From sequence record DRR723986_5705: a DNA stretch of 63,259 bases; one strand, 5' to 3'. Positions within the stretch are counted from its first letter, which is position 1, and each line of letters starts with the position of its first letter. The position numbers and the translations under genes were made by a program. Shown here piece after piece: positions 6,622-41,975 of this stretch. The notes beneath the pieces are model-generated. The model did not search any database and was not told where the DNA came from. It was given only the letters and a program-made list of their open reading frames with translations.

Positions 6622-6651
6622 GAAGCTGAATGAGAAGGCTGGGCAAGCACG

Positions 6652-15431: not shown

Positions 15432-15440
15432 TTTGAACAA

Positions 15441-16073: not shown

Positions 16074-16118
16074 TTCGGGTTTGGTGCTTGATTGATGAAT
16101 GAGCCCACATTGTGCCCA

Positions 16119-16155
16119 TAAAAAAAGCCGCTGAACTTCAGTGCAGCGGCTTTTT
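16119..16155 (-). terminator. Rho-independent terminator after rplY (possibly bidirectional)
   Basis: AAAAAGCCGCTG...CAGCGGCTTTTT. Confidence 0.8.
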
Positions 16156-16179
16156 CGGTACTAATTGGACTTCGAGAGT

Positions 16180-16767: not shown

Positions 16768-16787
16768 GTTGATTCTCCAAATTTGAC

Positions 16788-16805
16788 TTCACCGCGACCA
16801 GTGAA
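16788..16805 (-). promoter_or_regulatory. Candidate L25 leader hairpin in the rplY 5' UTR
   Basis: Minus strand TTCAC-TGGTCGCG-GTGAA hairpin just upstream of the GGAG RBS. Confidence 0.5.
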
Positions 16806-16886
16806 ACCAAGTTATGCGGCACTTAAGGGCGTCCGCAAAAAAGCCCGTAAAACTTTGTGTTCAGTCGACGAAATTAGCCGACGAAA

Positions 16887-17840
16887 TTAATCGATAAACA
16901 GCGAACTGACAGAATCAGAGCGAACAATGCGGCGAATGGTTTCGGCCAGCAGTTCATCAACACTGAGAACTCGAATGGTTTTGCTGTTGTTGGCTTCCTC
17001 GGACAAAGGAATGGTATCGGTCACCACCAGTTCGTCCAGGTCTGATTCTTCAACACGTTGAATGGCGCCACCTGACAACACAGGATGGGTACAGTAGGCC
17101 ACTACCTTTTTGGCGCCGTTGGCTTTCAGTGCCGCAGCAGCTTTGCACAAGGTGTTGGCGGTGTCGACCATGTCGTCCATGATCACGCAGGTGCGGTCTT
17201 TCACGTCGCCAATAATGTTCATGACCTCTGCCACGTTGGCACGGGGGCGACGCTTGTCGATGATTGCCAAATCACAATTCAGTCGCTTGGCCAGGGCACG
17301 GGCGCGGACCACGCCACCTACGTCAGGTGACACAACCATCAGGTTGTCGAGGTTTTGTTTCCACACATCGCCCAGCAAAACAGGCGATGCATAAATGTTG
17401 TCTACGGGGATGTCAAAGAAGCCCTGAATTTGGTCAGCGTGCAGGTCCATGGTCAGCACACGGTCGACACCCACCACCTGCAGCATGTTGGCCACCACTT
17501 TGGCTGTAATCGCCACACGCGAAGAACGCACACGGCGGTCTTGGCGGGCATAGCCGAAGTAGGGAATTGCAGCGGTAATGCGGCCTGCCGATGCGCGCTT
17601 GAGCGCGTCGATCATGACCATCATTTCCATGAGGTTGTCGTTGGTGGGTGCGCAAGTGGATTGCAGCACAAACACGTCTTTGCCGCGCACGTTTTCGTTG
17701 ATCTCGACCATGACTTCACCGTCTGAGAAACGACCCACGGTGGCTTTGCCCAGCGGAATGTTCAGCTGTTTGGCCACTGATTCGGCCAATGCTGGGTTTG
17801 CATTGCCGGTGAAGATCATTAGACTGCTGTCGGTTGCCAT
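16887..17840 (-). CDS. prs: Ribose-phosphate pyrophosphokinase
   Basis: [40 protein letters not shown]. Confidence 0.98.
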
Positions 17841-17877
17841 TGTTTACCCCAGGGCTTGACGTGTGCGTTGGCGAAAT

Positions 17878-17908
17878 AAAAAAAGGGCCAACCTGTGGCT
17901 GGCCCTTT
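17878..17908 (-). terminator. Terminator-like hairpin after tRNA-Gln
   Basis: AAAGGGCCA...TGGCCCTTT with a U-tract on the minus strand. Confidence 0.65.
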
Positions 17909-17913
17909 GGTTT

Positions 17914-17990
17914 TGGCAGGGGAGGAAGGACTCGAACCCTCGCATGCCGGAATCAAAATCCGGTGCCTTAACCAACTTGGCGACTCCCCT
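17914..17990 (-). tRNA. tRNA-Gln(TTG)
   Basis: Acceptor AGGGGAG/CTCCCCT, anticodon arm CCGGA-TT-TTG-AT-TCCGG, GTTCGAG T-loop, encoded CCA; usual position between ispE and prs. Confidence 0.97.
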
Positions 17991-18005
17991 AAAACTTTTA
18001 TCGAT

Positions 18006-18923
18006 TCAGCTTGATTTGACTTTGCATTCAAACCACTGCCCACGCTGTAATTCAGGCGCATCGGCGACTGCTGCCATTGCATTGCTAAGCTGGCTTGGGC
18101 TGGCAAACAAAGCAAACATGGCGGAGCCGGAACCTGACATTCGAATCAATTGCGGGTTGAACCTTGCAACACAATTTGAAAAAACACCAAATTGCTGTTC
18201 CCATTCAGGGTAGTTGCGTGCCACAACAGCTTGTAAAACATTCTGTGTGTTGGCTTGCAGGCAAGCCATCAACTCACTATTCATTCGGCGGGCCGAATCG
18301 AAGACCGCTATTTTGACGTCACTTGAGTTGCGTGTCAATTGCGGATCGCTAAATATTTTGGGCGTGGGGCAAGAAAGTGGCGGTTTGTAGACAATTAAAT
18401 GCCCTGAAACGCTTTGAATCGGGGTGATGACTTCACCGATGCCCTCAACAAAAGCACTGCTGTCCTGAAGAAAGAAGGGAACATCCGCCCCAAGCGCTTG
18501 GCCGATTGCAATCAGTTGTTCAGGTGTGACGGCTTGTTCGTGATGCTGTTGCAGCAGACGGAGCACGGTGGCTGCATTGCTGCTGCCCCCTCCCAAACCC
18601 GCCTGTTCGGGGACCTGCTTGCGGACATGAATGGTCACTGAGTAACCCATGCCAATGTTGGCGTTTGCATAATAGGCCTTGCAGGCGCGAACGGTGAGGT
18701 CGATTTCTTCAGGAATATGAACGAGATCACCACTTCGTTGAACCACCAATTCACCACTTGAATTGGTTTGCACCGACATTGAAACCTGGTCCCCAAGCGT
18801 AATTGGGCAGAAAATACTTTGAAGCAGGTGATAACCGTCAGCCCTGCGGCCTGTGATGTGCAAAAACAGATTGATTTTCGCGGGCGAAAAGGCCGATAGT
18901 TCGGCCGGGCTGTTGAGGTTCAC
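18006..18923 (-). CDS. ispE: 4-diphosphocytidyl-2-C-methyl-D-erythritol kinase
   Basis: PAKINLFLHITGRR.DGYH.LQS, AGLGGGSSNAA, LGADVPFF, MSGSGS. Confidence 0.96.
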   Translation of the reverse strand: MNLNSPAELSAFSPAKINLFLHITGRRADGYHLLQSIFCPITLGDQVSMSVQTNSSGELVVQRSGDLVHIPEEIDLTVRACKAYYANANIGMGYSVTIHVRKQVPEQAGLGGGSSNAATVLRLLQQHHEQAVTPEQLIAIGQALGADVPFFLQDSSAFVEGIGEVITPIQSVSGHLIVYKPPLSCPTPKIFSDPQLTRNSSDVKIAVFDSARRMNSELMACLQANTQNVLQAVVARNYPEWEQQFGVFSNCVARFNPQLIRMSGSGSAMFALFASPSQLSNAMAAVADAPELQRGQWFECKVKSS

Positions 18924-18926
18924 GCT

Positions 18927-19496
18927 TTATTTGCCCAAGGTGCCTTGCGGAATCAGGTCAATGCGACCGGAGGTCTTGTTTTCGATAAACACCACGCGGT
19001 AGCGGCCATTCTGGTTTTCCCACGACCAATTCGTGGGCAGGGTGGGCAATTCATCGGGATTGGGGTTTTCCATCCATTGCACCAAGGCTTCGGCAGGCAG
19101 TTCAACAGGGAACATGAGATCGAACAGGCTTTGCCAGTCTTTGGCCAGATACACTCGACCGTCCGCAGCCCGGACTTCATAAAAATTACCCAGGCGCTTG
19201 GCGCTACCCAGCGAAGGCCCCAGTGTGGAATTGACTTCAAGATAGGCAATTTCAGGAGCCTGGCTCGGCCCGGACCGACCCGAGCGCCATTCATAGGTGC
19301 CAGAAATGGAATCGGCCTCCATTTTTCCGTCGGCTTGCTCCACTTTCCAGATCAGCCCAAAGCGCCCGTAATGGCAGCTCGACTGAATCGACTTGCAATC
19401 GACTTCAGTGCTTGGATTTTGGCCCACGGTGCTGCAGGCGGCCAAGCTTGCGCTGATCAAGCCGATACAGGCCAGGCGCAATGATGATAAAGACAT
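18927..19496 (-). CDS. lolB: Outer-membrane lipoprotein LolB (divergent)
   Basis: Lipobox LAAC, GRF, S.LG, LP..AL..W; syntenic between the TPR protein and ispE. Alternative start 19514. Confidence 0.65.
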   Translation of the reverse strand: MSLSSLRLACIGLISASLAACSTVGQNPSTEVDCKSIQSSCHYGRFGLIWKVEQADGKMEADSISGTYEWRSGRSGPSQAPEIAYLEVNSTLGPSLGSAKRLGNFYEVRAADGRVYLAKDWQSLFDLMFPVELPAEALVQWMENPNPDELPTLPTNWSWENQNGRYRVVFIENKTSGRIDLIPQGTLGK

Positions 19497-19500
19497 GAAC

Positions 19501-21279
19501 TTAAATTTCCTCAACCTGTTGAACCAGTTTCTTCAATGCTTTGCTGTCGGGGTATCGAACGGTCAAGCGGTTTCCAAGTTGACGCGCTTCCTCTTTCTTG
19601 CCCGCTTTTAGCAAGACCTCGAGCAAATGCAGGCCAATTTCCTCATCCTGGCGCAGATCGAATGCTTTTTTCAAGGTTGCTTCGGCGCTGTCCAGCTTGC
19701 CCAATCGGTAATGCACCCAGCCCAGAGAATCAAGAATGAAGGGATCGTTGGGCGCAAGTTCAACTGCCTTTTTAATCAACTCATAAGCTTCGTCAAGCCG
19801 AACGTTGTTCTCGGCCCAGGTGTAGCCCAGCGCATTGTATCCGTGTGGGTTTTCCGGGCGAACCGCGATGAGGCGCTTGAGGAATTGTTCAACACGTGGC
19901 AGGTCGTCTTGCCGCTCGGCAACCATGGCACGCTCATACAGCAGGTCTGGCTGATCCGGAAATTTGAGCAAGGCCAGTTCTAGCTCGGTGGCAGCCTCGG
20001 CAGGGGCTTTTTGCGACTCAGCCAGTTGCGATTTCGCAAGAGCGAGCCGCACGGACTCATCTTCGTTTTTGGGTTTGAACTGGTTCAGAACCCGCTTGGC
20101 TGACAGGGCATTGCCCTGTTTTTCGAACAAGGCCGACTTTTTCAGCTGGACATCCAGGTTGTCGGCGGCGTTCGGTGTGGTGTCGAGCCATTTCAGGGCC
20201 GCTACGTAATCTTTACGCTCAAGCGCCATGTCGGACAGGGTGGCATGAATCAGCGATTCATTCTGGCGCTCGGCGGGTGTAGTTTTGTCCAGATAAATCT
20301 TGAAATGCTGTTCGGCGGCTTTGTAGTCCTTGAGCTGAGTGAGCACAAAACCCTGACTGGAGTACAGGGGAATGTTGTCCGGTTGTAGTTCAATCATTTC
20401 CGCAAAACGTTGACGTGCCTGTGCCCACTGCCCGAGTTGGGTGTGATTGCGGGCCAGGTACAGGCGAGCACCAAACCAGTTGGGGTGTTGTTGCACCTGC
20501 TCATTCACCATTTGCATGGCGGCATCCAGGTTGCCGTCACGTTTTTCCATGAACTGGGCCATCAGCACATAAAAACGTTCCTGTGGCGATTTGCGCAATA
20601 CGTTTTCCATGTGGCCCACAGCCTGTGGGTACAACTCGGAGTTGTTGGCAAGTTGGGCCAACAGGGTTTGCGCCTCAAGATCATCTGGATTGTTGCCAAA
20701 CAGCTCAATACCGGTTTGATAGGCCTTGTTTTTGTCGGGGATGCGTTGGAGCATGTCCAGCGCAACCTTTTCGCTGCTGGAGCCGCCGAGCCCCGGGTTG
20801 GCAGTCTCAGCAGCTTTCACATCGGCCAAAAAAGCCCGGAGTGCGGGCATGGCTTGATCAACGCGGTTGGTGCCTAGTTGCAGCAGCATGATGGAGCGGC
20901 TGGCCTGCTTGTCGCCGGGCGACAATTCAGACCACACCTGCGCGGCATTCAGGGCCAGGTCCAACTGGCCTTCGGCAAGGCTGATCTCGACAGCCCGTTT
21001 CGCCAGCTCGGGATTGCGTTGCTGTTTGGCTGCTTCGGTGTAGGCCAGCGTGGCAGAATACGTGTCGCCTCGCTGACTGGCAATTTCAGCAGTGAGCAGG
21101 GCAAACAGCGGGTCTTGTTTCACCATGTCGGCCACGCGGGCTTCGTAGGCTTTTTGCTCGGCAGACATCGGCGGCACTGCCGGCTCGCCTTGATCCGCGG
21201 GCACGGTGGCGCAGCCTGTGGTCAGGCTGGCTGCCAGAAAAAATACCGGGCCTGCGATGGTCCATTTAAAACAAGTCAT
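19501..21279 (-). CDS. Tetratricopeptide-repeat lipoprotein
   Basis: Lipobox-like TTGC; multiple TPRs (YNALGYT.A, ILDSLGWVHYRLG); conserved position next to mutM and lolB. Confidence 0.88.
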   Translation of the reverse strand: MTCFKWTIAGPVFFLAASLTTGCATVPADQGEPAVPPMSAEQKAYEARVADMVKQDPLFALLTAEIASQRGDTYSATLAYTEAAKQQRNPELAKRAVEISLAEGQLDLALNAAQVWSELSPGDKQASRSIMLLQLGTNRVDQAMPALRAFLADVKAAETANPGLGGSSSEKVALDMLQRIPDKNKAYQTGIELFGNNPDDLEAQTLLAQLANNSELYPQAVGHMENVLRKSPQERFYVLMAQFMEKRDGNLDAAMQMVNEQVQQHPNWFGARLYLARNHTQLGQWAQARQRFAEMIELQPDNIPLYSSQGFVLTQLKDYKAAEQHFKIYLDKTTPAERQNESLIHATLSDMALERKDYVAALKWLDTTPNAADNLDVQLKKSALFEKQGNALSAKRVLNQFKPKNEDESVRLALAKSQLAESQKAPAEAATELELALLKFPDQPDLLYERAMVAERQDDLPRVEQFLKRLIAVRPENPHGYNALGYTWAENNVRLDEAYELIKKAVELAPNDPFILDSLGWVHYRLGKLDSAEATLKKAFDLRQDEEIGLHLLEVLLKAGKKEEARQLGNRLTVRYPDSKALKKLVQQVEEI

Positions 21280-31037: not shown

Positions 31038-31143
31038 GGTAGACCCTGATAGACTTAAGCAACTATAGTGCTTGAGGCTGTTTTCTTTTCAGGGCAGTAT
31101 AGCAAAGCGCGTGCCAATTCTCTTCACTTCCTAAGCATTAAAC

Positions 31144-33144
31144 GTGCCTAACGCTCTAGAGCTTTCTTTGATTTTGATGTTGGTCGCCGTGTTGGCGGTC
31201 TCGCTATTCCGTCACTGGAAGCTTCCAGCCATGCTGGGCTATCTGTTTGCAGGCACTCTGATCGGGCCATATTCGTTCGGCATCGTGCCCGATACACCCG
31301 AAACCCGGCACCTCGCGGAGTTTGGCGTTGTTTTCCTGATGTTTTCAATAGGGCTTGAGTTTAGCCTGCCCAAATTGCATGCCATGCGTCGCGTGGTGTT
31401 TGGCTTGGGTTTTGCTCAAGTTGGGTTGACCATGCTGGGCGTGATTGGCCTTGGCTTGTTGGCAGGCTATTTTCTGGAAGTGCCGCTGAGTACTGCATTT
31501 GTGCTGGCGGGGGCGGCTGCGATGTCTTCTACCGCTATTGTCAGCAAGTTGTTGTCAGAGCGACTTGAGCTGGATTCTCCGCACGGGCGTCAAATCATGG
31601 GCATTTTACTGTTTCAGGATTTGGCGGTAGTTCCGCTGCTCATCATCATTCCCGCGCTGGGACAGGGGGCCGAGAACCTGACCGTGACCTTGAGCCTGGC
31701 AGTGGTGAAGGCTGCCCTGGTGTTGGGGCTGATGTTGGTGTTTGGCCAGCGAATGATGAACTGGTGGATGACCTTCGTGGCCCGCAGCAAGTCGCAAGAA
31801 TTGTTTGTACTGAATGTGCTGTTGATCACCTTGGGGTTGGCTTGGCTGACAGAATTGGCCGAATTGTCGTTGGCCCTTGGCGCCTTTGTGGCGGGTATTC
31901 TGATTGCAGAGACCCAATACAAACATCAGGTGGAAGAAGACATCAAACCCTTCCGCGATGTGCTGTTGGGTTTGTTCTTCGTGACCACTGGCATGCTGCT
32001 GAATCCGCAGGTGGTCATGCAGAATTGGCACTGGGTAATTGTGCTGGCCGTATTGCCCGTGTTGGCCAAGCTGGTGTTGATCGCTGCACTGGCGCGAATA
32101 TTCGGTGCCAACATGGGCACCGCCATGAGAACCGGTATTTACCTGGCGCAGGCTGGTGAGTTTGGTTTTGTGTTGCTGGCCAACACAGGATCAGCTGGTT
32201 TCGGTTTGGTGCCCGACCCCTGGTTGCAAACCATCACGGCAAGCATGGTGCTTTCCATGTTGGCTGCGCCTTTCATGATTCAACATGCAGACCGGATCGT
32301 GCTGCGCTTTTCCAGTCAGGAGTGGTTGCAAAAGTCGCTTGAGTTGCACCAAATCGCCCAGAAAAGCCTTGCCACGACCAAGCATGTGCTGATTTGCGGT
32401 TTCGGCCGCAGTGGTCAGCACCTGGCCAGGTTGCTGGACCGCGAAGATCTGGATTATGTGGCTTTGGATTTGGATCCGGACCGTATTCGGGAGGCGACTG
32501 CTGCGGGTGACTCTGTGGTGTTTGGCGATGCCGCGAAGCGTGAAACACTGGTTGCCGCCGGTTTGCTGCGAGCATCGTGTGTGGTGGTTACCTTTGCGGA
32601 ATTCAAGTCCGCTGAAAAAGTGCTGACTGCAGTGCGTGCCCTGGCACCCAACGTACCGGTGGTGGTGCGCACGTATGATGAAAGTGATCTGGAAAAACTG
32701 ACAGCGGCCGGAGCCACCGAAGTGGTGCCCGAAATTCTTGAGGGCAGCTTGATGTTGGGTTCTCAGGCGTTGATGTTGCTGGGTGTGCCTGTCTCGCGGG
32801 TGGTCAAGCAGATTCGAGCCATTCGTGAATCACGTTACCAGATGTTTCGAGGGGTGTTTCGGGGTGTGGACGACGAGGCGGACAGGCCTGAAAATCAGTG
32901 GATTCGTTTGCACTCCGTGTTTGTGGAGCCGGGTGCCAGTGGCGTGGGCAAAAGTTTGGCCGAGTTAGGAATTCTCGATCTCGATATTGAAGTCAGCGCA
33001 ATTCGACGGCGCGGTATTCGGGGTGGAGATCCTTCCCCGGACACGCAACTGGAGTCGGGGGATATTCTTGTACTGAAAGGTCAGCCGGATGCCTTGAGCC
33101 TGGCGGAAGCCATCATTCTTGGCCGCAAGTCCATGGGGCGTTAA
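31144..33144 (+). CDS. CPA2 monovalent cation:proton antiporter (Kef-like) with TrkA-N and TrkA-C domains
   Basis: AEFGVVFLMF.IGLEF, LLFQD, PFRDVLLGLFF, GEFGFV, CGFGRSGQ Rossmann motif, C-terminal RCK-C. Confidence 0.93.
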   Translation: MPNALELSLILMLVAVLAVSLFRHWKLPAMLGYLFAGTLIGPYSFGIVPDTPETRHLAEFGVVFLMFSIGLEFSLPKLHAMRRVVFGLGFAQVGLTMLGVIGLGLLAGYFLEVPLSTAFVLAGAAAMSSTAIVSKLLSERLELDSPHGRQIMGILLFQDLAVVPLLIIIPALGQGAENLTVTLSLAVVKAALVLGLMLVFGQRMMNWWMTFVARSKSQELFVLNVLLITLGLAWLTELAELSLALGAFVAGILIAETQYKHQVEEDIKPFRDVLLGLFFVTTGMLLNPQVVMQNWHWVIVLAVLPVLAKLVLIAALARIFGANMGTAMRTGIYLAQAGEFGFVLLANTGSAGFGLVPDPWLQTITASMVLSMLAAPFMIQHADRIVLRFSSQEWLQKSLELHQIAQKSLATTKHVLICGFGRSGQHLARLLDREDLDYVALDLDPDRIREATAAGDSVVFGDAAKRETLVAAGLLRASCVVVTFAEFKSAEKVLTAVRALAPNVPVVVRTYDESDLEKLTAAGATEVVPEILEGSLMLGSQALMLLGVPVSRVVKQIRAIRESRYQMFRGVFRGVDDEADRPENQWIRLHSVFVEPGASGVGKSLAELGILDLDIEVSAIRRRGIRGGDPSPDTQLESGDILVLKGQPDALSLAEAIILGRKSMGR

Positions 33145-33153
33145 TCAGGCTTT

Positions 33154-33798
33154 TTAACGAATGATGTAGAGCGCCGCGCAGTCAGCGCCTTGTGCTTCGT
33201 CCCACTGGCCGGCTTCGGTGGTGCACAGGTCTTCTTCACCACTGAGCACTTGCACCGCACCGCGCAAGGGGTTGCCATCGTCGAGTTTTCGATCAATTTC
33301 TGCAAGCTGTGCGACAGGGATGGTTTCTCCGATGAGCAAGGCCATGGCATTTTCCCGAGAAGTAGGGCCTTGCATGGTGTGGTTCAGCTGATAGCGACCA
33401 CTGAACTGATTGCTCATGGTGCTGCTTGCCGTGCAGTTTCCAGAGGCATCAATGCCACCGGTGAAATCGCCCTGAATAAAGCCAGACAACTGAAGGTGGG
33501 TGAATACATCGCACGATTCATTACCCTCAATCAGGCCATTGCCGTTTCCGCCGTTGTTTGACAGGCCCGCTGCGCTAGCAGCAATGAAGTCGCCGGGCAA
33601 TGCTGAATAGCGAGCTTGAAATGCTGACAAGGCAGTTTCCAGGTTGGCGATGTCGGTGATGGTGGCTTGTACGCGGGCGCTGTTCAACAACTCACGTCCT
33701 TTCAGTACTCCGCCAGCGAGTATGGCCAGTACCGCCAAAGCGATGGCCAGTTCCAACAGTGAAAATCCGCGTTGAATGTGTTTGCGTGAATGTGTCAA
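33154..33798 (-). CDS. Type IV pilin-like protein (class III signal peptide)
   Basis: QRG|FSLLELAIAL with Glu5 and a hydrophobic helix; LPGD and IDRKLDDG motifs; four Cys. Confidence 0.88.
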   Translation of the reverse strand: MTHSRKHIQRGFSLLELAIALAVLAILAGGVLKGRELLNSARVQATITDIANLETALSAFQARYSALPGDFIAASAAGLSNNGGNGNGLIEGNESCDVFTHLQLSGFIQGDFTGGIDASGNCTASSTMSNQFSGRYQLNHTMQGPTSRENAMALLIGETIPVAQLAEIDRKLDDGNPLRGAVQVLSGEEDLCTTEAGQWDEAQGADCAALYIIR

Positions 33799-33799
33799 T

Positions 33800-34549
33800 T
33801 CAATTCTCCTGAATGTGTGGTGTGTCGAGTGCGCCGCGTTTCATCCAGAGCCAGTTCAGGCGCTCAAATGAGAGCCAGACCGGGTTGGCCGCGGGTTGAT
33901 CTGGATTGATGAAAAACTGTTGATACCGGTTTTGGTTTGCCTGGTCGGTCGTGGGGTATGCAAGCCAGACAGTGGTGGCATTGAGCAAGGTGTGGGCCCC
34001 ACAACCCGCATCCAGGTTGGAAGGCACGGCAAGTCCCCGCACAAGTTGACAAAGATGAATGGCCGGTAGTGGCCCTGAGCCCACTGGATGGTTCATTGTG
34101 TAGGGGGCCATGAGAATTTCGGTTAACTGTTGCGGGCTTAATTCTGCGAAAGGTTGTGTTGACACCAGTGCATTCTGGGCGGGCTCGCCGGCCTGTTCCA
34201 GCGTGGCCACTGCCATTTTCCACTGGCCACTGAGTCCCCAACTTGCCAGTGTGACAGTGGGAAGCCAGCCCTCCTTGTAGGTGCAGGCGTCGCCGCTGCG
34301 CAATTCAGCGCCGTTGGCGAGGCCTGCCGGGCAGGGCAGCCTGCCTGTCGCCAATACAAAGCCCTCCACGGCTTCAAGAATGCGTTGCCGGGATTCGAGG
34401 TGGATGAGTACTTTGTCTTTCTCGCGCTGACTGGTCAGGAGGTGAAGCACCGGCCCAAGAATGATGGCCATGAGTACAACAACCAGCGCGACTTCGATCA
34501 GCATGAACCCGTCCGAATTGAAGTTCGGGCTTGCTTGATGACGATTCAT
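33800..34549 (-). CDS. Type IV minor pilin-like protein
   Basis: DG|FMLIEVALVV with Glu5; GRLPCPA...C...G.LP motif. Confidence 0.82.
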   Translation of the reverse strand: MNRHQASPNFNSDGFMLIEVALVVVLMAIILGPVLHLLTSQREKDKVLIHLESRQRILEAVEGFVLATGRLPCPAGLANGAELRSGDACTYKEGWLPTVTLASWGLSGQWKMAVATLEQAGEPAQNALVSTQPFAELSPQQLTEILMAPYTMNHPVGSGPLPAIHLCQLVRGLAVPSNLDAGCGAHTLLNATTVWLAYPTTDQANQNRYQQFFINPDQPAANPVWLSFERLNWLWMKRGALDTPHIQEN

Positions 34550-35664
34550 GGTGCACCTGTCAGTTTGAAGGTGAATTGATCAAGGCTGGACAGGGTGTTG
34601 TCTGGCCATGAGAAGTGGCATAGGCAAGCCATGTTGTTTTGGCTCAGCGGGCACTGGTTGCTGTGGGTAGGGCGACATGATTTGTTGATGGCAGCGATGG
34701 GTTCGAAGTGGCTGACTGGCCACAGGTTTTTCATGCGGGCCGGCCCGTTGAATGTACAGGGTTGATTGCCCAGGCTGGTGCAATCCGTTTGCGCGTTGTC
34801 GCTGACGCAGTTTGGGTTGCTGTCCAGGCATGGCGCTGGCGATGTCCAGTTGCCTGTGTTTTGGCAATGGCAACTGCAGCGGGTTTTTGTGCAACGGCAT
34901 TGGCAACCCGAGTCAATCGGCTGAAACAGGTTAGAAAACGGGTCAACAAGCACCATGTTTTCATGGGTACTCGTGCTCGCGTTGAATTGCGGATTGAGTT
35001 GTTGCCAGGTGTTGAGTGTGCTTTTCAGCTGATGCTGTTGCACTCGTTTCATGTGGGTTTGTAATTCACTCAGGTGAACTAAAACATAGGGTGGTGAAAT
35101 GTCGTACTGATGTTCTGCAATGGGTGTAATTGATTTTGCGACCACCGCAACGATGTCTGTTTTGATGAGATTGTTCTCTGCGGGAATCCGAATCTGGATT
35201 GCCGGCCTGGCGTAGTTCACCCAACGACTCCAGCCCAAAGCGTTCGCTTGAATCAACTGGCTTGAAACTGCGTAATGCCATTGCATGTTGGTCGATGGTT
35301 CAAGTTCGTTGAAGCGCGCATCAACTCCTGCGTTCAGGTAGTTGATGGCAGTTTTGCTGCGTACGGGCAGGTAGCCCCAGGGTTTGTTCAAGCAAGTAGT
35401 TTGAGCAAAGTCGCCAGGTTGAATTGCGGGGCAAGGCAGGTGACCCAAATGACTTTGACTGTGCAAACCCTGGCTGGCAGCGAAGCCCAGGAGGCTGGCC
35501 CGAATTTGTTCAAGCACCTGGGTTTCACGGGCCTTTTGCTGAAGCTGCAGGCTTTGCCTGAACGCTTCATTGTTGTGAAATTCCAGGGTGGCAAACCCCA
35601 GCATCAGCATCAGAATTAAAAGTGCAAACAATGAATAGCCCTGTTGTTGAAACATGCTTTTCAT
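34546..35664 (-). CDS. Glu5-less (GspK/PilX-like) pilin-like protein with Cys-rich C-terminal domain
   Basis: QQG|YSLFALLIL, no Glu5; G.LPCPA...C...GYLP shared with the neighbouring gene; 14 Cys in the last ~120 aa; ATGA overlaps. Confidence 0.7.
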   Translation of the reverse strand: MKSMFQQQGYSLFALLILMLMLGFATLEFHNNEAFRQSLQLQQKARETQVLEQIRASLLGFAASQGLHSQSHLGHLPCPAIQPGDFAQTTCLNKPWGYLPVRSKTAINYLNAGVDARFNELEPSTNMQWHYAVSSQLIQANALGWSRWVNYARPAIQIRIPAENNLIKTDIVAVVAKSITPIAEHQYDISPPYVLVHLSELQTHMKRVQQHQLKSTLNTWQQLNPQFNASTSTHENMVLVDPFSNLFQPIDSGCQCRCTKTRCSCHCQNTGNWTSPAPCLDSNPNCVSDNAQTDCTSLGNQPCTFNGPARMKNLWPVSHFEPIAAINKSCRPTHSNQCPLSQNNMACLCHFSWPDNTLSSLDQFTFKLTGAP

Positions 35665-36206
35665 GGCAGCCACTTTTTTTGAACAGGATCAAAGGTGGTT
35701 TGACCTCGTTGGGTAATGATCCAACCTTGCACTTTGTAGGCGGGCGCTGAAATTTTCGCTGCGGGTTCTTCAGCCTTTGTTGCCGTTGGCATCGAGGTTG
35801 CTACAAAAAGGTTTTTGCCGGGCAGGGGGTTGTTGATCGCAACATTCGATCGAGTGCTGGAGGGCTCTTTGCCAAAGCACAACAGGTAAAACGGTGTGTC
35901 AACTGGGGCGGGTTTTGTTTCCACAAGGCATTGCCCTGAATCGGGTTGTTTGGTGTTTATCCAAGTGGTCCAGGTTTGCCACAAGTCGGCTTCAGTATTG
36001 AATTGTTGCTCCAGAAAAAGAGTTTTTCGCACTGGCACTGATTGCTGAATTTGCAGGTTTGGCTTTTGATTCAGTTGTTGTTCAATTTCCATGTTGCGCA
36101 GGGCGATGAGTGCAAAAAGGGCCACAAGCAACAACGCCAAATCGATTGCAGGGCGAACCCAGCGAAAGCCAACAATTCTCTGTGTTGTCGTTGTCAGTTT
36201 GCTCAT
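35661..36206 (-). CDS. Bitopic membrane hypothetical protein, candidate alignment-complex component
   Basis: One N-terminal TM (AIDLALLLVALFALIAL); ATGA overlaps with both neighbours in the filament operon. Confidence 0.55.
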   Translation of the reverse strand: MSKLTTTTQRIVGFRWVRPAIDLALLLVALFALIALRNMEIEQQLNQKPNLQIQQSVPVRKTLFLEQQFNTEADLWQTWTTWINTKQPDSGQCLVETKPAPVDTPFYLLCFGKEPSSTRSNVAINNPLPGKNLFVATSMPTATKAEEPAAKISAPAYKVQGWIITQRGQTTFDPVQKKWLP

Positions 36207-37063
36207 TGGTTTGTTGCCCCAACTGAGCATTGCGCTTGGGTGGAACTATTGAGCGAGCAGCCTTTGGGTACTCGTTTTCGCGCCCGGGACAAATCTGCAG
36301 TGGTCAGAATTTCTCCCTGTTCGTCCCACGATATTTTCAGTGAAAGCAGGTTGGCGCGTTCGTCTTGACCAAATTTTCGAATCTGTTCCAACCAACCCGC
36401 GAATGGCGCTTCTTTGGCGTTGCGAGGCGCAGCACCGAGCGAATTCTTGAGGTGCTGAAGATTCGCTTTCTCGAGTTTTGATTGTTGTTGATTTGTATGC
36501 CAACTCATCAAAAGAAAAGTACCCAGCACACAAGCAACTGCGGCACTGCGAACTGCCTGATAATGGCCAGAAGGTTTGACCCACAAGCCCAGATAAAGTT
36601 GAAGGCTGCTGCGGAATTGGCTGACACCTGATTTGTTTGAACTCAAGAAGTACTTCAGGTGTTTGAATTCGTGCGTATTCAGAAGTGCCATGTGAACAGC
36701 GCGATTGAATTGTGCAGATTTTTCCGACGAAATAATCCGAACGTTTTGTCCCATGCTGCGCAGTTCGGTCAACGCCTCTTGGTGAAAGGCTGTTGCCGGT
36801 GATTCAATAATTCTCGGCGGGTCTTCTGCAATTCCAGCCCAGCGGTGCTCTGCCCAGGGTGGGGTCGCGATCTTGTTCTGGAATACATTGAGGTACACAA
36901 GCGTGTCTGGCAGGCTGAAGCTGGAAAGTGCAATTGCACTGCCACTAAACTCACTGTAGGGAAGGCGCTGTTCTTCTGCCCATCGCTGGTCTTGTTGCCG
37001 AAACAGAATTGCGTGGCCCTGCTCAATCACCCACACATCAGCATGCATTGGTGTGGTTGTCAT
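36203..37063 (-). CDS. Hypothetical protein with GspL / PilM-PilN-like topology
   Basis: About 170-aa soluble N-terminus, one TM (SAAVACVLGTFLLMSW), short C-terminal domain; coupled to the GspF-like gene. Confidence 0.5.
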   Translation of the reverse strand: MTTTPMHADVWVIEQGHAILFRQQDQRWAEEQRLPYSEFSGSAIALSSFSLPDTLVYLNVFQNKIATPPWAEHRWAGIAEDPPRIIESPATAFHQEALTELRSMGQNVRIISSEKSAQFNRAVHMALLNTHEFKHLKYFLSSNKSGVSQFRSSLQLYLGLWVKPSGHYQAVRSAAVACVLGTFLLMSWHTNQQQSKLEKANLQHLKNSLGAAPRNAKEAPFAGWLEQIRKFGQDERANLLSLKISWDEQGEILTTADLSRARKRVPKGCSLNSSTQAQCSVGATNQ

Positions 37064-38097
37064 GACAGGCCAGTCAGGTTGTTGTAGAGCGGTGCCAATG
37101 TGAATTGATAGGCCAGCGCAAGGGTAAGTGCGGCAATGGCCAAGGCCATTGAAGGCAAGGTGTTTTGCAGGCGTTGTTGGTTTTCCCTTGCCCGCATTTC
37201 GTATACTTTTGAGGCCAGGAAAAAGCAGTAAGCAAGGTTGCCGGTTTGCTCGGCCAGTTGACTTTGACGCACCAGAAAACCAGGTGCGCCGGCTGCCTGC
37301 ATCGACTGGCTTAGTGACATGCCCAATTTTAACTGTTGTTGAATGCCCAGCATCAGCGTGTTAAGCCTGTGCAGGGTTTTCGTTGACAGGTTCGTACCAC
37401 CCCACCAGGTTGCTGTGGGCAGGGTGCGGTGGCGTAGGCAGTGCATCAAGTCCAGACCGGCATGGAGTTCGCATGCAATCACATGATAAAAATTCGATGT
37501 AAGCCAAAGATTGTTCGGCAGTAGCGTTTGTGATTCAGTTTGATTGTTGGTGGGTCTGAATTTGAAGAAAGCGGCAATAGTCAACACGACAATACCGATG
37601 AAAAGCAGGCCGTCTGACAATGTAAAGGTGGGTGTGGACGTGTTAGTTTCTTGTATTAAATGCGGTGCACTCACGTAATGTAGCAATACCCAGCACGCGC
37701 AGGCCAGCGTTAAAACCAGCATTGGATAAACAAGGCTTTTACCCAAGGTGTATTGTGCATCGCTGGTGGTCTTCCAGCGATCCAGTTGGGTTTGTAAGGC
37801 CAAGCCAAGATCACCACTGGCTTGTGCACACACCAGTGCAATTTCCAGGTGCATGGGCACTTTGCCGAATGCGGCACGAAAGGCGGTTTGAATGTTCTGC
37901 CCTTCTTGAAGAAAGTGTGATGTCCGGGATAAGCCCAGGTTTAAAAGATTCCCTCGTGAATGACCATTTTGCAGTTCACTGCTCAGTGAAAGCGCATCAA
38001 GCGCGGGCATGCCAGACTCCAACAATTCAGCCCATTGGCCTAACCAGGTACGCCAGGTGGCTGGCTTTATTCTGTCGCCCAGTGGCTTAGTTTTCAT
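37060..38097 (-). CDS. GspF/PilC-family inner-membrane platform protein (divergent)
   Basis: QWAELLESGMPALDAL, ASGDL, LVYP followed by a TM, second repeat with EQTGNL, three TMs. Confidence 0.8.
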   Translation of the reverse strand: MKTKPLGDRIKPATWRTWLGQWAELLESGMPALDALSLSSELQNGHSRGNLLNLGLSRTSHFLQEGQNIQTAFRAAFGKVPMHLEIALVCAQASGDLGLALQTQLDRWKTTSDAQYTLGKSLVYPMLVLTLACACWVLLHYVSAPHLIQETNTSTPTFTLSDGLLFIGIVVLTIAAFFKFRPTNNQTESQTLLPNNLWLTSNFYHVIACELHAGLDLMHCLRHRTLPTATWWGGTNLSTKTLHRLNTLMLGIQQQLKLGMSLSQSMQAAGAPGFLVRQSQLAEQTGNLAYCFFLASKVYEMRARENQQRLQNTLPSMALAIAALTLALAYQFTLAPLYNNLTGLS

Positions 38098-39082
38098 GGC
38101 TTGATTTCAGGGTTGATGATGGAAATGGAAGGTGATTTGCCGATGAGAAAAGTTGCATCAGTCCATCAATGCTTTTGCAACTGAGTACCTCCTTGCGGGG
38201 CATATTTTTCAGGTTGACGATTTCGGCCCACAATTGGCGTTGTTCGTTTTGCTCTGCGGGTTTCAAGCGCAAGGTGACAATGCCGTTCAAGCAGTTCATC
38301 AGGCTGCCCAGGCGCACATCCAGTTCGGTGAGCCGGCTGATAGCCCCAAGGCAATCCGGTGCGTGTACAGACGCAAAAACCCGATGTCCGGTGAGTGCAG
38401 CATTCAGGGTGAGTTCTGCGGTCTCTTCATCCCTGACTTCGCCAACCAGAATGGTGTCCGGGTCCTGGCGCATCAATGAACGCAAGCCCGAGGCAAAGTT
38501 CAGGTGAGGTAGCCGCGACAAGTCGGTTTGAACTGCCTCGGGATTGATGATTTCTACTGGGTCTTCAAGTGTAGCGATCCGACCTGCACATGCACCCAGG
38601 TTATTGAGCATCGCATGCAGCGTGGTTGTTTTCCCGCTGCCAGTGGCGCCGGCTACCAGTGTGAGTCCGTGCTCGTGGGCAAGCAGTTGCTGAATATGCG
38701 TCAAGGCGGCCTGACTCAAGCCAAGCCGATTCAAATGCATGCGGCTGTGCGTATTCAACAGCCGGATCACCAGGTTTTCTCCGTGCAAGCTAGGGTGGGT
38801 CGCCAGTCGAAGATCAAGGTTGTTGCGAGTTAGCCGTGCGTCCTGTGGGCGGCGCGTTTCAGCAATATTCATTTTGCTTTCGGCCTTGAATGCTTGAACA
38901 AGGGATCTGCCAGTGTCGTTGGGAATATCTTGTGCATGGCTGAGTTTCCCGTTGATGCGCAGTCGCACGCGGAAGTTCATCTGGGCAGGCGTGATATGTA
39001 TGTCCGATGCATGCAGGGCGCTGGCATAGGCAATCGTGTTGTCAATATTCTTGAAGGCTGCGTCCAGCAGGATGTGTGTCAT
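38087..39082 (-). CDS. GspE/PilB-family secretion ATPase (minimal)
   Basis: ASDIHI, R.RING, E.RRPQD.R, Walker A GATGSGKTTT, TLEDPVE, RQDPDTILVGEVRD, TGH...SVH; ATG 39082 overlaps the secretin stop. Confidence 0.9.
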   Translation of the reverse strand: MTHILLDAAFKNIDNTIAYASALHASDIHITPAQMNFRVRLRINGKLSHAQDIPNDTGRSLVQAFKAESKMNIAETRRPQDARLTRNNLDLRLATHPSLHGENLVIRLLNTHSRMHLNRLGLSQAALTHIQQLLAHEHGLTLVAGATGSGKTTTLHAMLNNLGACAGRIATLEDPVEIINPEAVQTDLSRLPHLNFASGLRSLMRQDPDTILVGEVRDEETAELTLNAALTGHRVFASVHAPDCLGAISRLTELDVRLGSLMNCLNGIVTLRLKPAEQNEQRQLWAEIVNLKNMPRKEVLSCKSIDGLMQLFSSANHLPFPSSTLKSSHEN

Positions 39083-41055
39083 TGGATTTTTGCCTGAATC
39101 AATGAACGGACGGTGAGCAGGGGTAGCGAACATTCCTGATGCACGCATCGCGCCTCGGCCAGTGACAGTTGAGCGAGAGCATTATCGAAATGCCCGAGGC
39201 TGCTTTGATGAAGTGCCATGTTGTAGTAGGGCTCTGGCGTGTGCGGAAAGCGTTCAATCAAAAGCTCAAGAAGTGCGCTCAAGGCTTTGGTTTGCCCAGC
39301 CTGGTACATGATCAAGCCAGCGGCCAATGCCTTGTTGAGCTCGGCAAGTTCTTTTTGTATCTGGGGTTGATCTGCAGTTGAACTGTCGAGCACGGTCGCT
39401 TTGAGCAGCACCACCAGTTCAATGTGGTTATCTTCTCGGTTTTCGCTCTGTGTAATGAGGTCAACGGATTCTGGTGTACCCGGAATACCCCGGCTCAGGC
39501 GGCTGTTTTCTTTTTGCCGAAGTCCGCCCAGCAAGGCCATTTCGCCGCTTTTAAGTCGCAAGATTGATTCCAGTTCGCGGGTTTGTACCTCAGGTACCTT
39601 GCTAACAATGTTGAGTTGTTGCAGGGCAGGATTGGGATCTTGCACAAAACCTACGATACGGCTCAGTGTCGGGCGAACCCGCAACTGAATTGCATGGTTG
39701 TCTGCAATGTGTGGTGTCACCGTCATCAGAAAACCCACCGGAACTGTTTGAACCTGAGTGGTGAAAGTTGAAAAGGCAGGGCTGTTTTGTGTGGGTGCGC
39801 TGGTTTGGACATCGGTTGTGAAATACACCCGGTTGTCGATTACTTTCAGCACAGCGGCCTGTTGGTTCATGGTCACAACTCGCGGCGACGAAAGCACTTC
39901 GGTTTTTCCGAACTCCTCCAGCAGACGCAAGGCCAGACTGGTGTCCGTGTTGTTGCCTGTTTGCAAGGCGCTGAAGGTCAGTGCAGGGGAGCCCAGATTC
40001 AGCCCTTGAACAGCCAGGCCAGCCGTGATTCCGTTTTGGCGAAGCACATTCCAGTCAATTCCTCGCTCATAGCGATCGTTTAATGAGATCTCAGTGATCA
40101 CCGCTTCAATCACGATTTGTCGATCAACCCGACGTTGTATTTGCGCAAGCCACTGGCCTACCCGACGGTGCTGGCTGGGTTTTGCAATCACGGACACGGT
40201 TCCGGATTCAGGGTGGGCAATCACTCGCCCGGAACGGATTTCCTTGCGCGTGGTCGTGATGTCCCGTTTCTCGGTAGATACCGCCGTTGTGCTTCTCAAG
40301 TTGGGTTGCGCGCGGCGAGGTGAAGTATTGCGCGTACTTGCATAGGCCCGGTCTTCGTCCTCATCAATGATGCGCTCCCGGGTTGAGAGCTCGACCGGTT
40401 TTATCTGTGCCTGGATGATCTGTTCAATTTGAGTGGAAATGTCTTGCCACAAATCGTGTTGTTGTGAGTTGTTAAGAATCAGTTCTGACCGATTGCCTGT
40501 CTCCCGGCGATCAGTCAACTCACGATGGGCACCAGCAATGGCCGAACTCAAGCTGGATGAGTCATTCATTTGCCGTGCGATTGACAGGTAATCGACGGTG
40601 TAGACCCGCAACTCATCGACCTCGCATCGCATGGACAGTTGTTTGCCCTCAAACTGAACGCTGGCACCGGCCTGCAGTTCAAGGCTCTCGATCACTTGTT
40701 GAAGTGGCATTTCTCTTCCCACCATGCTGATCGGGTATTCGCCACAGCCATCCATTTCATAGCCAAGCTGCAGTTCGCGCGAAATCAGTTCGAGCACCTG
40801 GCTGGCGGGTATGTTTTCAAGCCGAAAAGTGAATGTTTGTTGATGTCTTTGCCACGCGTTGTTGCTGTGTTGAACTTTGTCTGCCCAAAAAACTGCATTC
40901 AATTCGAGCGTGTGTTGTGCCTCAGGTAGGGCAATTGCAAGGCTTGGTGACGGTGGAGTGGCCACGCAAGCGGTCAAGGCGGTGCAAAGACCGATTAAAA
41001 ACACACGCAGTGATGGCACGAGCAGGCTTTTCAGGGTTGAAGTGCTGCGGATCAT
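39079..41055 (-). CDS. Lipoprotein secretin (MshL-like) with C-terminal TPR-like extension
   Basis: Lipobox LTAC; RQIVIEAVITEI.L....GIDW, VLSSPRV...NQQ.A, G..MTVTP.I, SGE...LGGL, ELVVLLK. Start set at ATG 41055. Confidence 0.88.
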   Translation of the reverse strand: MIRSTSTLKSLLVPSLRVFLIGLCTALTACVATPPSPSLAIALPEAQHTLELNAVFWADKVQHSNNAWQRHQQTFTFRLENIPASQVLELISRELQLGYEMDGCGEYPISMVGREMPLQQVIESLELQAGASVQFEGKQLSMRCEVDELRVYTVDYLSIARQMNDSSSLSSAIAGAHRELTDRRETGNRSELILNNSQQHDLWQDISTQIEQIIQAQIKPVELSTRERIIDEDEDRAYASTRNTSPRRAQPNLRSTTAVSTEKRDITTTRKEIRSGRVIAHPESGTVSVIAKPSQHRRVGQWLAQIQRRVDRQIVIEAVITEISLNDRYERGIDWNVLRQNGITAGLAVQGLNLGSPALTFSALQTGNNTDTSLALRLLEEFGKTEVLSSPRVVTMNQQAAVLKVIDNRVYFTTDVQTSAPTQNSPAFSTFTTQVQTVPVGFLMTVTPHIADNHAIQLRVRPTLSRIVGFVQDPNPALQQLNIVSKVPEVQTRELESILRLKSGEMALLGGLRQKENSRLSRGIPGTPESVDLITQSENREDNHIELVVLLKATVLDSSTADQPQIQKELAELNKALAAGLIMYQAGQTKALSALLELLIERFPHTPEPYYNMALHQSSLGHFDNALAQLSLAEARCVHQECSLPLLTVRSLIQAKIQ

Positions 41056-41186
41056 ACTTTGATGAAACCATTTCCACGCTTCGTGGTCATGCCTTGTGAG
41101 TGAGCCCATCACCATTTGGATGGTGGGCGCATGTCCTTCGGGGTACAATAGCTCCCAAATTCGTATTCGCCTACTAAGGAGCCCCC

Positions 41187-41975
41187 ATGGGCTTTGTTGC
41201 TCAATTAAAAAACGTGGATTTCGGTTATGCCGATCGCCTCATCCTGGAAAACATTTCGCTGGACATTCCCAAGGGCAAAGTGGTTTCTGTCATGGGTGGC
41301 TCCGGTTCAGGCAAAACTACTTTGCTGCGCCTGATGTGCGGTCAGTACCCGGTGAATCGGGGTGAAGTGCAAGTTCTTGGCCAAAATGTGGTGACTGCAA
41401 GTACTCAGCAGCTTTATGCATTTCGAAAAAAAATCGGCGTGCTTTTTCAGTTTGGTGCCTTGTTTACTGACCTGAACGTGTTTGAGAATGTGGCGTTTCC
41501 GCTGCGCGAGCATACCAATCTGCCCGAGGCGGCCATTCGCGACCTGGTGTTGTTGAAGTTGCAAGCTGTGGGTCTTCGCGGCGCCAGCAAGCTTTTTCCT
41601 TCCGAAATTTCTGGCGGCATGAGCAGGCGCGTGGCCTTGGCCCGCGCCATCGCGCTGGATCCCGAACTGATTTTCTATGATGAACCATTTGCCGGGCTTG
41701 ACCCGATTTCATTGGGTATTACGGCGAATCTCATTCGCACGCTGAATGATGCATTGGGTGCCACCTCGGTGGTGGTCACACACGATATTCACGAGTCATT
41801 TGCAATCAGCGACCATGTCATCGTGATTGCAAACGGCAAGGTGCTGGCACAGGGTACACCTGCTGAAGTGGAGGCCAATCAGGATCCGTATGTTCAACAG
41901 TTCATCAAAGGCTTGCCTGAGGGGCCAGTGAAGTTTCATTACCCCGCGCGCAACTTGCAGGAGGACTTCGCATGA
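41187..41975 (+). CDS. mlaF: Phospholipid ABC transporter ATPase
   Basis: [58 protein letters not shown]. Confidence 0.95.

Follow-up and report, generated by a model that had tools for sequence, protein, structure and literature searches.

The window studied here is a stretch of 63,259 nucleotides from sequence record DRR723986_5705, and between positions 33154 and 41055 on its minus strand it carries genes for a secretin, an ATPase, a platform protein, two membrane proteins and three pilin-like proteins. The question raised by this locus is whether these genes encode a working member of the superfamily of type IV filaments (TFF) and, if so, which kind of machine they build. The original prediction, made from the sequence without database searches, had described them as a compact, divergent operon that fits no standard type, and as a streamlined relative of the mannose-sensitive haemagglutinin (MSHA) pilus system. 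Our analysis favours, with a probability of roughly 60%, an operon of the genus Limnobacter and a few close relatives that is functional, passed on by vertical descent and quick to evolve, and whose likeliest product would be a thin adhesive pilus carrying the gene 6 protein at its tip.

Family calls were made with Pfam and NCBIfam profiles, using the NCBIfam equivalog cut-offs. The four components that mark the superfamily were all present, namely, Secretin on gene 1 (residues 379–556, E 5e-24), T2SSE on gene 2 (E 2e-73, residues 11–281 aligned with profile positions 10–287 of 370), T2SSF on gene 3 (E 1e-18, in two stretches) and N_methyl on gene 8, in agreement with the order of identities first proposed. 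No component of the operon reached the equivalog cut-off for GspD, GspE, GspF, GspG, PilB, PilQ, MshL, the PilN-family type IVb pilus (T4bP) secretin, ComGA, ComGB or TadA. By these profile scores the operon is a genuine member of the TFF superfamily, and it fits none of the tested definitions of the type II secretion system (T2SS), MSH, type IVa pilus (T4aP), T4bP, competence (Com) pilus and tight adherence (Tad) system, as the original prediction had held. The window contains 71 non-overlapping ORFs (open reading frames) of at least 90 aa, of which 70 were scanned; the one left out, 38169–38507 on the plus strand, lies antisense to the ATPase gene. Neither a prepilin peptidase nor PilT nor an MshM-type AAA protein was found in these 70 ORFs, and these three of the absences listed in the original prediction stand for that set.

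The ORF listing and a direct reading of the junctions gave eight co-directional genes. Five junctions are ATGA overlaps (39079/39082, 37060/37063, 36203/36206, 35661/35664 and 34546/34549), and the remaining two consist of an 11-bp overlap at 38087/38097 and a 1-bp gap at 33798/33800; gene number, coordinates and junctions all matched the first description. Based on a scan with two peptide patterns, which distant relatives can escape, and with one genome per species, we identified 17 loci, 13 titled Limnobacter and four in metagenome-assembled genomes (MAGs) labelled Burkholderiales or Gammaproteobacteria. One of these (L012) is a 4-kb fragment; the other 16 are full loci, and in all of them the gene order and gene lengths were kept and the eight positions were filled. 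This count includes two loci in which gene 5 escaped tblastn and was recognized from an ORF that shows the conserved pattern of Trp, Cys and Gly residues. The ratio of nonsynonymous to synonymous substitution rates (dN/dS), calculated pairwise against six relatives by the Nei–Gojobori method, was 0.04–0.28 for the operon genes, the values for the secretin excluding the rows of L001 and L005. Since synteny and length are kept in 16/16 full loci and dN/dS is low, the eight ORFs are real genes and not chance ORFs.

In the same comparisons, the dN/dS of kefB, mlaF, mlaE and kdsD was only 0.006–0.025, and the operon evolved at 5–15 times the rate of its neighbours. Protein identity to the window fell to 22–57% across the genus within the operon, compared with 79–100% in the flanks. 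The lowest ratio of the operon belonged to gene 8 (0.04–0.08), while gene 5, its fastest-evolving gene, was among the least constrained (0.15–0.28). Judged from these ratios, the operon is functional and under purifying selection, yet fast-evolving. The divergence of its components, which lie below all family cut-offs, their rapid change relative to the flanks and the lack of a detected promoter would also suit a decaying or silent relic without current function. Against such a relic stand the eight intact frames in 16/16 full loci, dN/dS values of 0.04–0.28, and the catalytic motifs, the cleavage sites of the prepilins and 14 Cys residues, all of which stay invariant down to 33–57% identity, and we consider decay scarcely credible. 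The argument against decay that the original prediction had drawn from intact frames was thus borne out by the synteny and substitution rates of the relatives. Synonymous divergence from L003 and L004 was mosaic inside the operon (35661–38097), with values of 0.15–0.27 for genes 3–5, 0.79–0.83 for gene 8 and 0.33–0.63 for the flanks, which suggests recombination within the operon among close Limnobacter lineages.

The host was assigned to Limnobacter, a diderm betaproteobacterium and environmental sulfur oxidiser, from a search with the platform protein and from the pattern scan. The word-based platform search returned 69 proteins with E ≤0.001, 68 of them at least 38% identical and the 69th 24% identical, and all seven that carried an organism name were from Limnobacter. 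The operon adjoins mlaF in 16/16 full loci and kefB in 15/16. A recent horizontal island was rejected, since the GC content of the operon (0.50–0.555) matches that of the window (approximately 0.53), no island signature was seen and the chromosomal site is identical in 16/16 loci. We also rejected a plasmid-borne system, because the plasmid relatives of the secretin and the ATPase were about equally distant (best tblastn identities of 28 and 42%, respectively). The best plasmid match to the ATPase belongs to a separate unclassified cluster with a 555-aa ATPase. This cluster (L020, Janthinobacterium lividum plasmid NZ_CP139977.1, 321065–339886) is another unclassified type IV filament locus, with three small pilins, a platform, the ATPase and two hypothetical proteins, beside cohesin-domain and giant FG-GAP repeat proteins. 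Beyond the Limnobacter loci, short ATPases and two gene 8 homologues were found on contigs that agree in length between the two proteins (47,326 and 128,751 bp), the 128,751-bp contig being labelled Burkholderiaceae bacterium. In L015, a divergent Limnobacter MAG, mlaF is kept on one side with an extra Hsp20 gene interposed, and on the other flank a flagellin gene and a SpoIIE/response-regulator/STAS partner-switching set replace kefB (6299–6784 and 15305–20473).

Next, we analysed the secretin. The best NCBIfam model for gene 1 was MshL (TIGR02519), with 189 bits against a cut-off of 250.2. This model scored approximately 100 bits above the next one, the PilN-type T4b secretin (TIGR02520; 89.9 of 287.65), which was followed by GspD (81.8 of 351) and PilQ (58.6 of 284.35). 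The nearest solved relatives were BfpB, itself a lipoprotein secretin (E 3e-19, 250 aa aligned), and then GspD (E 6e-10). A start at GTG 41019 yields a lipoprotein signal ending LTA/C, and this Cys is kept in 17/17 sequences, while the longer frame contains TAA at codon 6 in two orthologues; for both reasons, translation probably starts at GTG 41019 rather than at ATG 41055. A still longer coding frame from TTG 41148 was rejected on account of stop codons in the orthologues and of indels whose lengths are not divisible by three. With MshL as the best model, BfpB as the best solved relative and the lipobox Cys in every sequence, the gene 1 product is, by similarity, a secretin of the pilus class. 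Its core is 92–97% conserved. The N-terminal region of approximately 230 aa was matched by no profile model, and the moderately conserved C-terminal tail (approximately residues 570–658) is helical and resembles tetratricopeptide repeats (TPR; weak matches, E 0.025 and 0.082).

The clear lead of the MshL model raises the possibility of a divergent, reduced MSHA orthologue (type IVe pilus, T4eP, in the naming proposed by Pelicic) that has lost MshM, MshN, MshF and most accessory genes. The TPR-like tail of the secretin could then be a remnant of MshN, although this likeness is weak. As a reference, we used a locus with MSHA gene layout from Aeromonas caviae NZ_AP026896.1 (L018), in which MshL passed the curated cut-off with 279.1 bits as a control; the names of its other genes are those we presume from gene order. 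This record, of 4.9 Mb, is filed as a plasmid yet is chromosome-sized and has 18 annotated features, and its MSHA-like locus is unannotated. In comparison with the Aeromonas proteins, clear similarity was confined to the Limnobacter secretin (E 4e-21, 26% identity across 353 aa) and ATPase (E 8e-50, 39% identity across 261 aa). The platform was barely similar to MshG (18% identity, E 0.058), genes 4 and 5 matched nothing and the pilins matched over their first 17–29 residues only, corresponding to the N-terminal helix. Compared with the MSHA cluster (mshHIJKLMNEGF-BACDOPQ), the Limnobacter operon shares the pilus-type secretin, a platform, more than one pilin and an extension-type ATPase from the GspE/PilB/MshE group, and PilT is missing from both clusters. 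However, it has eight genes against approximately 17, lacks MshM, MshN, MshF, MshH and a PilN-like MshJ, and encodes a platform of 345 aa against 406 aa, and no Msh protein corresponds in sequence to its genes 4, 5, 6 and 7. The MSH model, as given in the available text of Denise et al. 2019 (PMC6668835), makes MshM mandatory; this protein was not found in the window, whereas the Aeromonas locus contains AAA_22/MshM. In addition, Aeromonas MshE carries an MshEN domain at residues 62–149, which the Limnobacter ATPase lacks.

The ATPase itself supplied further evidence on its relatives. It covered positions 113–378 of 486 in the GspE model with 239.9 bits against a cut-off of 630, and positions 3–265 of 267 in the ComGA model with 235.6 of 300; PilB scored 217.8 of 675.65 and the TadA-family model 48 of 373. 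The N2 domain and the catalytic core are kept, while the N1/MshEN domain (no PF05157 match) and the tetracysteine zinc module are missing; the loss of both ends is read from the partial coverage of the GspE and T2SSE profiles and, for the C-terminal zinc module, from the presence of CxxC in 0/17 sequences. Walker B and the His box are found in all 17 ATPases, as is Walker A (GxxGSGKT in 15 and GATGAGKS in two). In the comparison with solved structures, PilF/PilB and GspE were equally close (E approximately 1e-49) and PilT was distant (E 1e-25), indicating that the enzyme is, by its similarity, an ATPase of the extension type. In a quick maximum-likelihood tree of 56 rows, which contained no PilB reference and whose backbone was unresolved, the 22 short forms made up one clade with an SH-aLRT (Shimodaira–Hasegawa-like approximate likelihood-ratio test) value of 96, and Aeromonas MshE, Escherichia coli GspE and the Janthinobacterium ATPase grouped elsewhere (SH-aLRT 97). 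The nearest full-length ATPases carry MshEN, and each of the 14 tested missed the PilB cut-off as well as that for GspE, a pattern shared with Aeromonas MshE (scores of 526 and 524), which would suit an MSHA origin. The position of MshE outside the short clade does not, and in view of the evidence from the secretin, platform and pilins given above we regard the reduced MSHA orthologue as improbable. The MSHA relationship originally proposed thus holds for the secretin, with MshL as its best model, and not for the platform, genes 4 and 5, the pilins or the ATPase clade.

For the platform protein, which is very divergent, the top NCBIfam model was ComGB (45.5 bits of 240), followed by GspF (31.8 of 424); on the latter model Aeromonas MshG reaches 330. 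Its hydrophobic segments lie at residues 120–145, 156–183 and 314–337. The Com-like size of both the ATPase and the platform, and ComGA and ComGB as the nearest curated models relative to their cut-offs, recall the Com pilus of monoderms (ComGA–GG), and the operon could be its diderm counterpart, a DNA-uptake pseudopilus to which a secretin has been added. This is very improbable in our view: neither Com cut-off was reached, the pilins show no similarity to ComGC, ComGD, ComGE, ComGF or ComGG beyond the N-terminal signal motif, and comEA-, comEC- and dprA-like genes were not found in the window. The Limnobacter operon also differs from the Com pilus in its diderm host and in its secretin and its L-like and M-like pair, and the small size of its motor proteins may reflect domain loss.

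Genes 4 and 5 encode this putative pair. The original prediction had called both single-TM (transmembrane) proteins of unknown kind and had seen no clear PilMNOP or GspCLM. Gene 4 matched no Pfam or NCBIfam family, and a profile search of PDB gave no meaningful match. Its AlphaFold2 (AF2) model, based on 17 sequences with a mean pLDDT (predicted local distance difference test) of 81.2, begins with an alpha/beta domain, predicted to be cytoplasmic, continues in a long helix and ends in a small beta domain. The top Foldseek match in PDB was cyto-GspL (4pht_Y; E 0.033, probability 0.96), followed by PulL (5tkw) and EpsL (1w97/1yf5), with PilM (5eox) ranking lower; TM-scores were 0.25–0.30 and no match reached E ≤0.001. 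Residues C269 and C279, a Cys pair in the predicted periplasmic domain, are invariant in 17 sequences. The absence of a family was confirmed for both proteins, while the hydrophobic segment of gene 4 proved merely moderate (Kyte–Doolittle 1.59 at residues 170–188), at about the same place in 15/17 orthologues. Similarly, PilN, PilO, PilP and GspC were not found in the window, yet the exclusion of GspL was too strong, as the predicted fold of gene 4 is nearest, if weakly, to GspL. The gene 5 product has an anchor at residues 15–42 and a predicted periplasmic domain with an invariant Cys pair; W76, W82, G91, C93, C110, G161, W162 and W179 are invariant in 15 sequences. We propose from its position and topology, its sole basis, that gene 5 is the partner of gene 4, in analogy to GspM, PilO or TcpD. 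Two-protein membrane sub-complexes of this kind, PulL/PulM and TcpR/TcpD, are described in the consulted portion of the review by Pelicic (2023; PMC10191384).

The three prepilin-like proteins have leaders of 9–14 residues, and in genes 7 and 8 the residue at +1 is Phe. Gene 8 alone exceeded the N_methyl cut-off (32 bits against 21.2; TIGR02532, 29.2 against 16.3). It has a short leader with the cleavage motif QRG/FSLLE, invariant residues from G11 to E16 and at C122, C192 and C207, and a C-terminal Cys pair 14 residues apart, and with a mean column identity of 76% it surpasses the other genes of the operon in conservation. In the orthologues, the motif reads G/FSLLEL without variation. We detected 273 homologues at E ≤0.001. 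Its profile matches in PDB were N-terminal pilin helices, and the ESM Atlas returned prepilin clusters alone (0.97–0.98), possibly including its own. In length (214 aa) the protein agrees with the earlier statement that a short major pilin of the GspG/PilA type is missing; gene 8 is nevertheless a plausible main fibre subunit.

Gene 7 carries the prepilin motif G/F..xE, with G14 and E19 invariant in 17 sequences, and gave weak NCBIfam matches to the GspG and GspH N termini; its PDB profile matches were restricted to the N-terminal helix. The module that follows, GRLPCPA...C...GWLP, is the same as in gene 6, and hhalign joined genes 6 and 7 with a probability of 94.7% (89 columns) and genes 7 and 8 with 91.9%. 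In gene 6, G9 is invariant before the hydrophobic helix and position +5 was never Glu (17/17 sequences). By sequence, genes 6 and 7 are pilin-like through the N-terminal helix only, with weak NCBIfam support.

The remainder of the gene 6 protein is unusual. After its N-terminal helix, it contains a GHLPCPA module and then a cysteine-rich, beta-rich C-terminal domain; 14 Cys residues are invariant in 17 sequences, and the window protein has 16. The invariant motif CxCxC-TKTR-CxCxC at residues 254–267 lies on two predicted adjacent strands, and its spacing fits a hairpin that may form a three-rung cystine ladder, which we presume to be comparable to that of theta-defensins. Residues 150–330 of the AF2 model were mostly above pLDDT 85. 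Foldseek against PDB found no solved structure that matched this model, GspK included (best probability 0.16), and a PDB profile search gave no meaningful match. A profile search of 1.84 billion representatives returned 26 full-length clusters, three fragments and 105 matches to the N-terminal part (to approximately position 135). Three of the 26 clusters equal proteins of our loci, and the others are 26–74% identical to the nearest locus protein. The N-terminal module also occurs in unannotated proteins of 110–718 aa (P0219–P0323, for example P0219, P0221, P0225 and P0231), as a helix without Glu5 followed by G.LPCP(D/A)...C...G.LP...LWYAVS; 13 of the 14 scanned had no Pfam family. Cap subunits such as GspK lack Glu5, and we propose gene 6 as the tip or cap subunit.

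Taken as a pilus, the system could be assembled as follows. A prepilin peptidase encoded elsewhere would cleave the three prepilins after the conserved Gly, and the short ATPase, as a hexamer, would act with the compact platform to drive the pilins from the inner membrane. The GspL-like gene 4 protein and the gene 5 protein may hold and align this motor, comparable to PulL/PulM and TcpR/TcpD. The gene 6 cap with gene 7 would start the filament, and gene 8 would continue it as the main subunit. The fibre would leave through the lipoprotein secretin, whose lipid anchor and C-terminal helical tail may replace a separate pilotin, and the disulfide-locked domain of gene 6 would be displayed at the tip of a thin adhesive pilus. 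The comparisons show the gene set, its conservation, the purifying selection on it, the intact catalytic motifs and scores short of every equivalog cut-off; each of the assembly steps, the roles of genes 4 to 8, the preference for a pilus over secretion and the adhesive function are what we infer.

Several observations weigh against this proposal. The system is known here from its genes alone, and a prepilin peptidase, a retraction ATPase and a pilotin are not encoded in the operon. In T2SS, the N1 domain of the ATPase binds GspL; the Limnobacter ATPase has no N1, which leaves the hold of gene 4 on the ATPase unexplained. The match of gene 4 to GspL is itself weak in both E value and TM-score, and for gene 5 neither a relative nor a matching fold was detected in Pfam, NCBIfam, PDB profiles or the ESM Atlas. 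Gene 8 is the last gene of the operon and, by start assignment, has a TTG start in the window and in 9/17 loci; both features are odd for a bulk subunit, and the main pilin may therefore lie elsewhere. A sigma-70 and terminator scan gave nothing above shuffled controls, and no promoter was found. Finally, a pilus and a T2SS-like pseudopilus cannot be told apart with these data, and the pseudopilus is the main rival.

According to this rival explanation, the operon encodes a minimal T2SS-type secretion device, in which the three prepilin-like proteins would build a short pseudopilus in the periplasm. Driven by the ATPase, the platform and the GspL/GspM-like pair, it would expel a single folded substrate, or a small number of them, by way of the secretin. 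The fold of gene 4 is best matched by GspL, PulL and EpsL, and an L-like gene followed by an M-like gene for a small bitopic protein directly after E and F, with the pilins next, recalls the gsp order. A large pilin without Glu5 recalls GspK, all genes lie in a single operon, no retraction ATPase appeared in the window scan and GspE was the top ATPase model, by a narrow margin over ComGA. On the other hand, the secretin is not of the GspD type and prefers MshL and BfpB, and the ATPase lacks the N1 domain and zinc module and forms a clade that excludes E. coli GspE. GspC was not found, GspG scored only 19.6 bits of 88.85, the models for GspH, GspI, GspJ and GspK were not reached, and the fold of gene 6 is unlike solved structures, GspK among them. 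In addition, the C-terminal Cys pair of gene 8 is of the pilin type, and no gene in the operon or next to it is a candidate for the substrate. A T2SS-type device is thus unlikely, in our estimate, but it deserves the most attention among the alternatives to the thin adhesive pilus.

The remaining named types were more distant. Compared with T4aP, the operon did not reach the PilB and PilQ models, and PilN, PilO, PilP and PilT were not found in the window. With T4bP (Bfp, Tcp and the R64 thin pilus) it shares a compact single cluster and a lipoprotein secretin, of which BfpB is the closest solved relative, and possibly a two-protein membrane sub-complex that replaces PilMNOP, as reported for TcpR/TcpD in the same portion of the review (PMC10191384). 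However, the Limnobacter leaders are short and of the type IVa kind, no dedicated peptidase was found in the window, the PilN-family secretin model was not reached and the other parts show no similarity. The Tad system differs in its ATPase, as the low TadA-family score indicates, and no Flp or TadB/C matches were obtained.

The cluster does correspond to the published definition of a 'generic' TFF system, since it contains, besides a secretin, the required ATPase, platform and pilin and fits no specific model (available text of PMC6668835); this bin, however, is a residue class and not a family. The original prediction had ranked the operon as a candidate for an undescribed system. No published description of this Limnobacter system was found in the literature, including the accessible part of the Limnobacter genome paper (PMC4557100), and the tables of Denise et al. 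might list a relative. The same study, in its available text, reports 884 generic systems that fit no named type (PMC6668835), so that such a cluster is to be expected rather than astonishing.

The features of the locus are given in Table 1. The flanks are as first described, with a CPA2/KefB-like antiporter at 31144–33144 (+) on one side and mlaF at 41187–41975 (+), the start of mlaFEDAC, on the other. The wider surroundings form a housekeeping stretch that includes rpoN-lptBAC-kdsCD, murA, hisGDCBHAFIE, tatBC, petABC and sspAB.

Table 1. Genes of the putative type IV filament operon and the adjoining intergenic region, in window coordinates
Feature	Coordinates	Strand	Basis or remark
Gene 1: secretin, predicted outer-membrane lipoprotein	39079..41055	-	Pfam Secretin; probable start GTG 41019
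Gene 2: short extension-type ATPase, 331 aa	38087..39082	-	T2SSE
Gene 3: compact inner-membrane platform, GspF/PilC family, 345 aa	37060..38097	-	T2SSF, two stretches
Gene 4: bitopic protein, GspL-like layout, 286 aa	36203..37063	-	Predicted fold; no Pfam/NCBIfam family
Gene 5: N-terminal membrane anchor and periplasmic domain (predicted), 181 aa	35661..36206	-	No family
Gene 6: prepilin-like, no Glu5, cysteine-rich, 372 aa	34546..35664	-	Orthologue alignment, AF2 model
Gene 7: prepilin-like minor subunit (putative), 249 aa	33800..34549	-	Orthologue alignment, hhalign
Gene 8: class III signal-peptide pilin, 214 aa, TTG start	33154..33798	-	N_methyl
Intergenic region, divergent, separating mlaF from the secretin gene	41056..41186	.	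Presumed shared promoter or leader region

The divergent region 41056–41186 and its equivalents in L001–L011 contain blocks of DNA that are invariant in nine aligned loci, while the adjoining coding sequence diverges strongly. The region is non-coding, as its indels are not multiples of three and two orthologues contain stops. One block on the mlaF strand reads GTACAAT, a possible -10 box. Rfam gave no family for this region, apart from one chance match to a small nucleolar RNA model (E 3.4). Its RNAalifold consensus was weak (-8.16 kcal/mol, with 3/19 pairs compensatory), and a riboswitch is therefore not claimed. The sigma-54 consensus occurred 63 times in the window against 68.7 expected, and none of these matches fell in the region upstream of the operon, where a sigma-70-like site was not found either. 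Elsewhere, an exact -24/-12 match, TGGCACGCGCTTTGCT, is located at 31101–31116 (-), 64 bp upstream of kdsD, the first in the gene series kdsD-kdsC-lptC-lptA-lptB-rpoN; over the window as a whole, such matches are no more frequent than expected by chance.

The short ATPases form a clade of their own and gene 6 has its own set of full-length clusters (22 short forms and 26 clusters, respectively), which suggests that the lineage, though small, is a real one among Limnobacter-like Burkholderiaceae. We tentatively raise the possibility, which we hold to be less probable than not, that the operon constitutes a further TFF subtype, for which the scheme of Pelicic would provide the next letter after T4eP, and that it is a self-sufficient minimal pilus machine of diderms. 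The marks of such a subtype may be the Com-sized motor, with an ATPase free of N1/MshEN and zinc module and a platform of 345 aa, and a lineage-specific L-like protein with its orphan partner. They may also include the self-piloting lipoprotein secretin with its fused helical tail and a tip pilin whose fold, built around the CxCxC-turn-CxCxC hairpin, is absent from solved structures.

The practical importance of the system is modest, given its environmental host and the number of unclassified TFF systems already on record. If the proposed reading is true, however, the operon would show how far a diderm TFF machine can be reduced, to eight genes with no separate pilotin, no PilMNOP and an ATPase stripped of the domains that usually serve in regulation and anchoring. 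It would also offer natural test cases for the parts that are needed in assembly, and for how an ATPase is held at its platform without N1. The gene 6 protein, in turn, may represent a tip module of a new, disulfide-locked kind.

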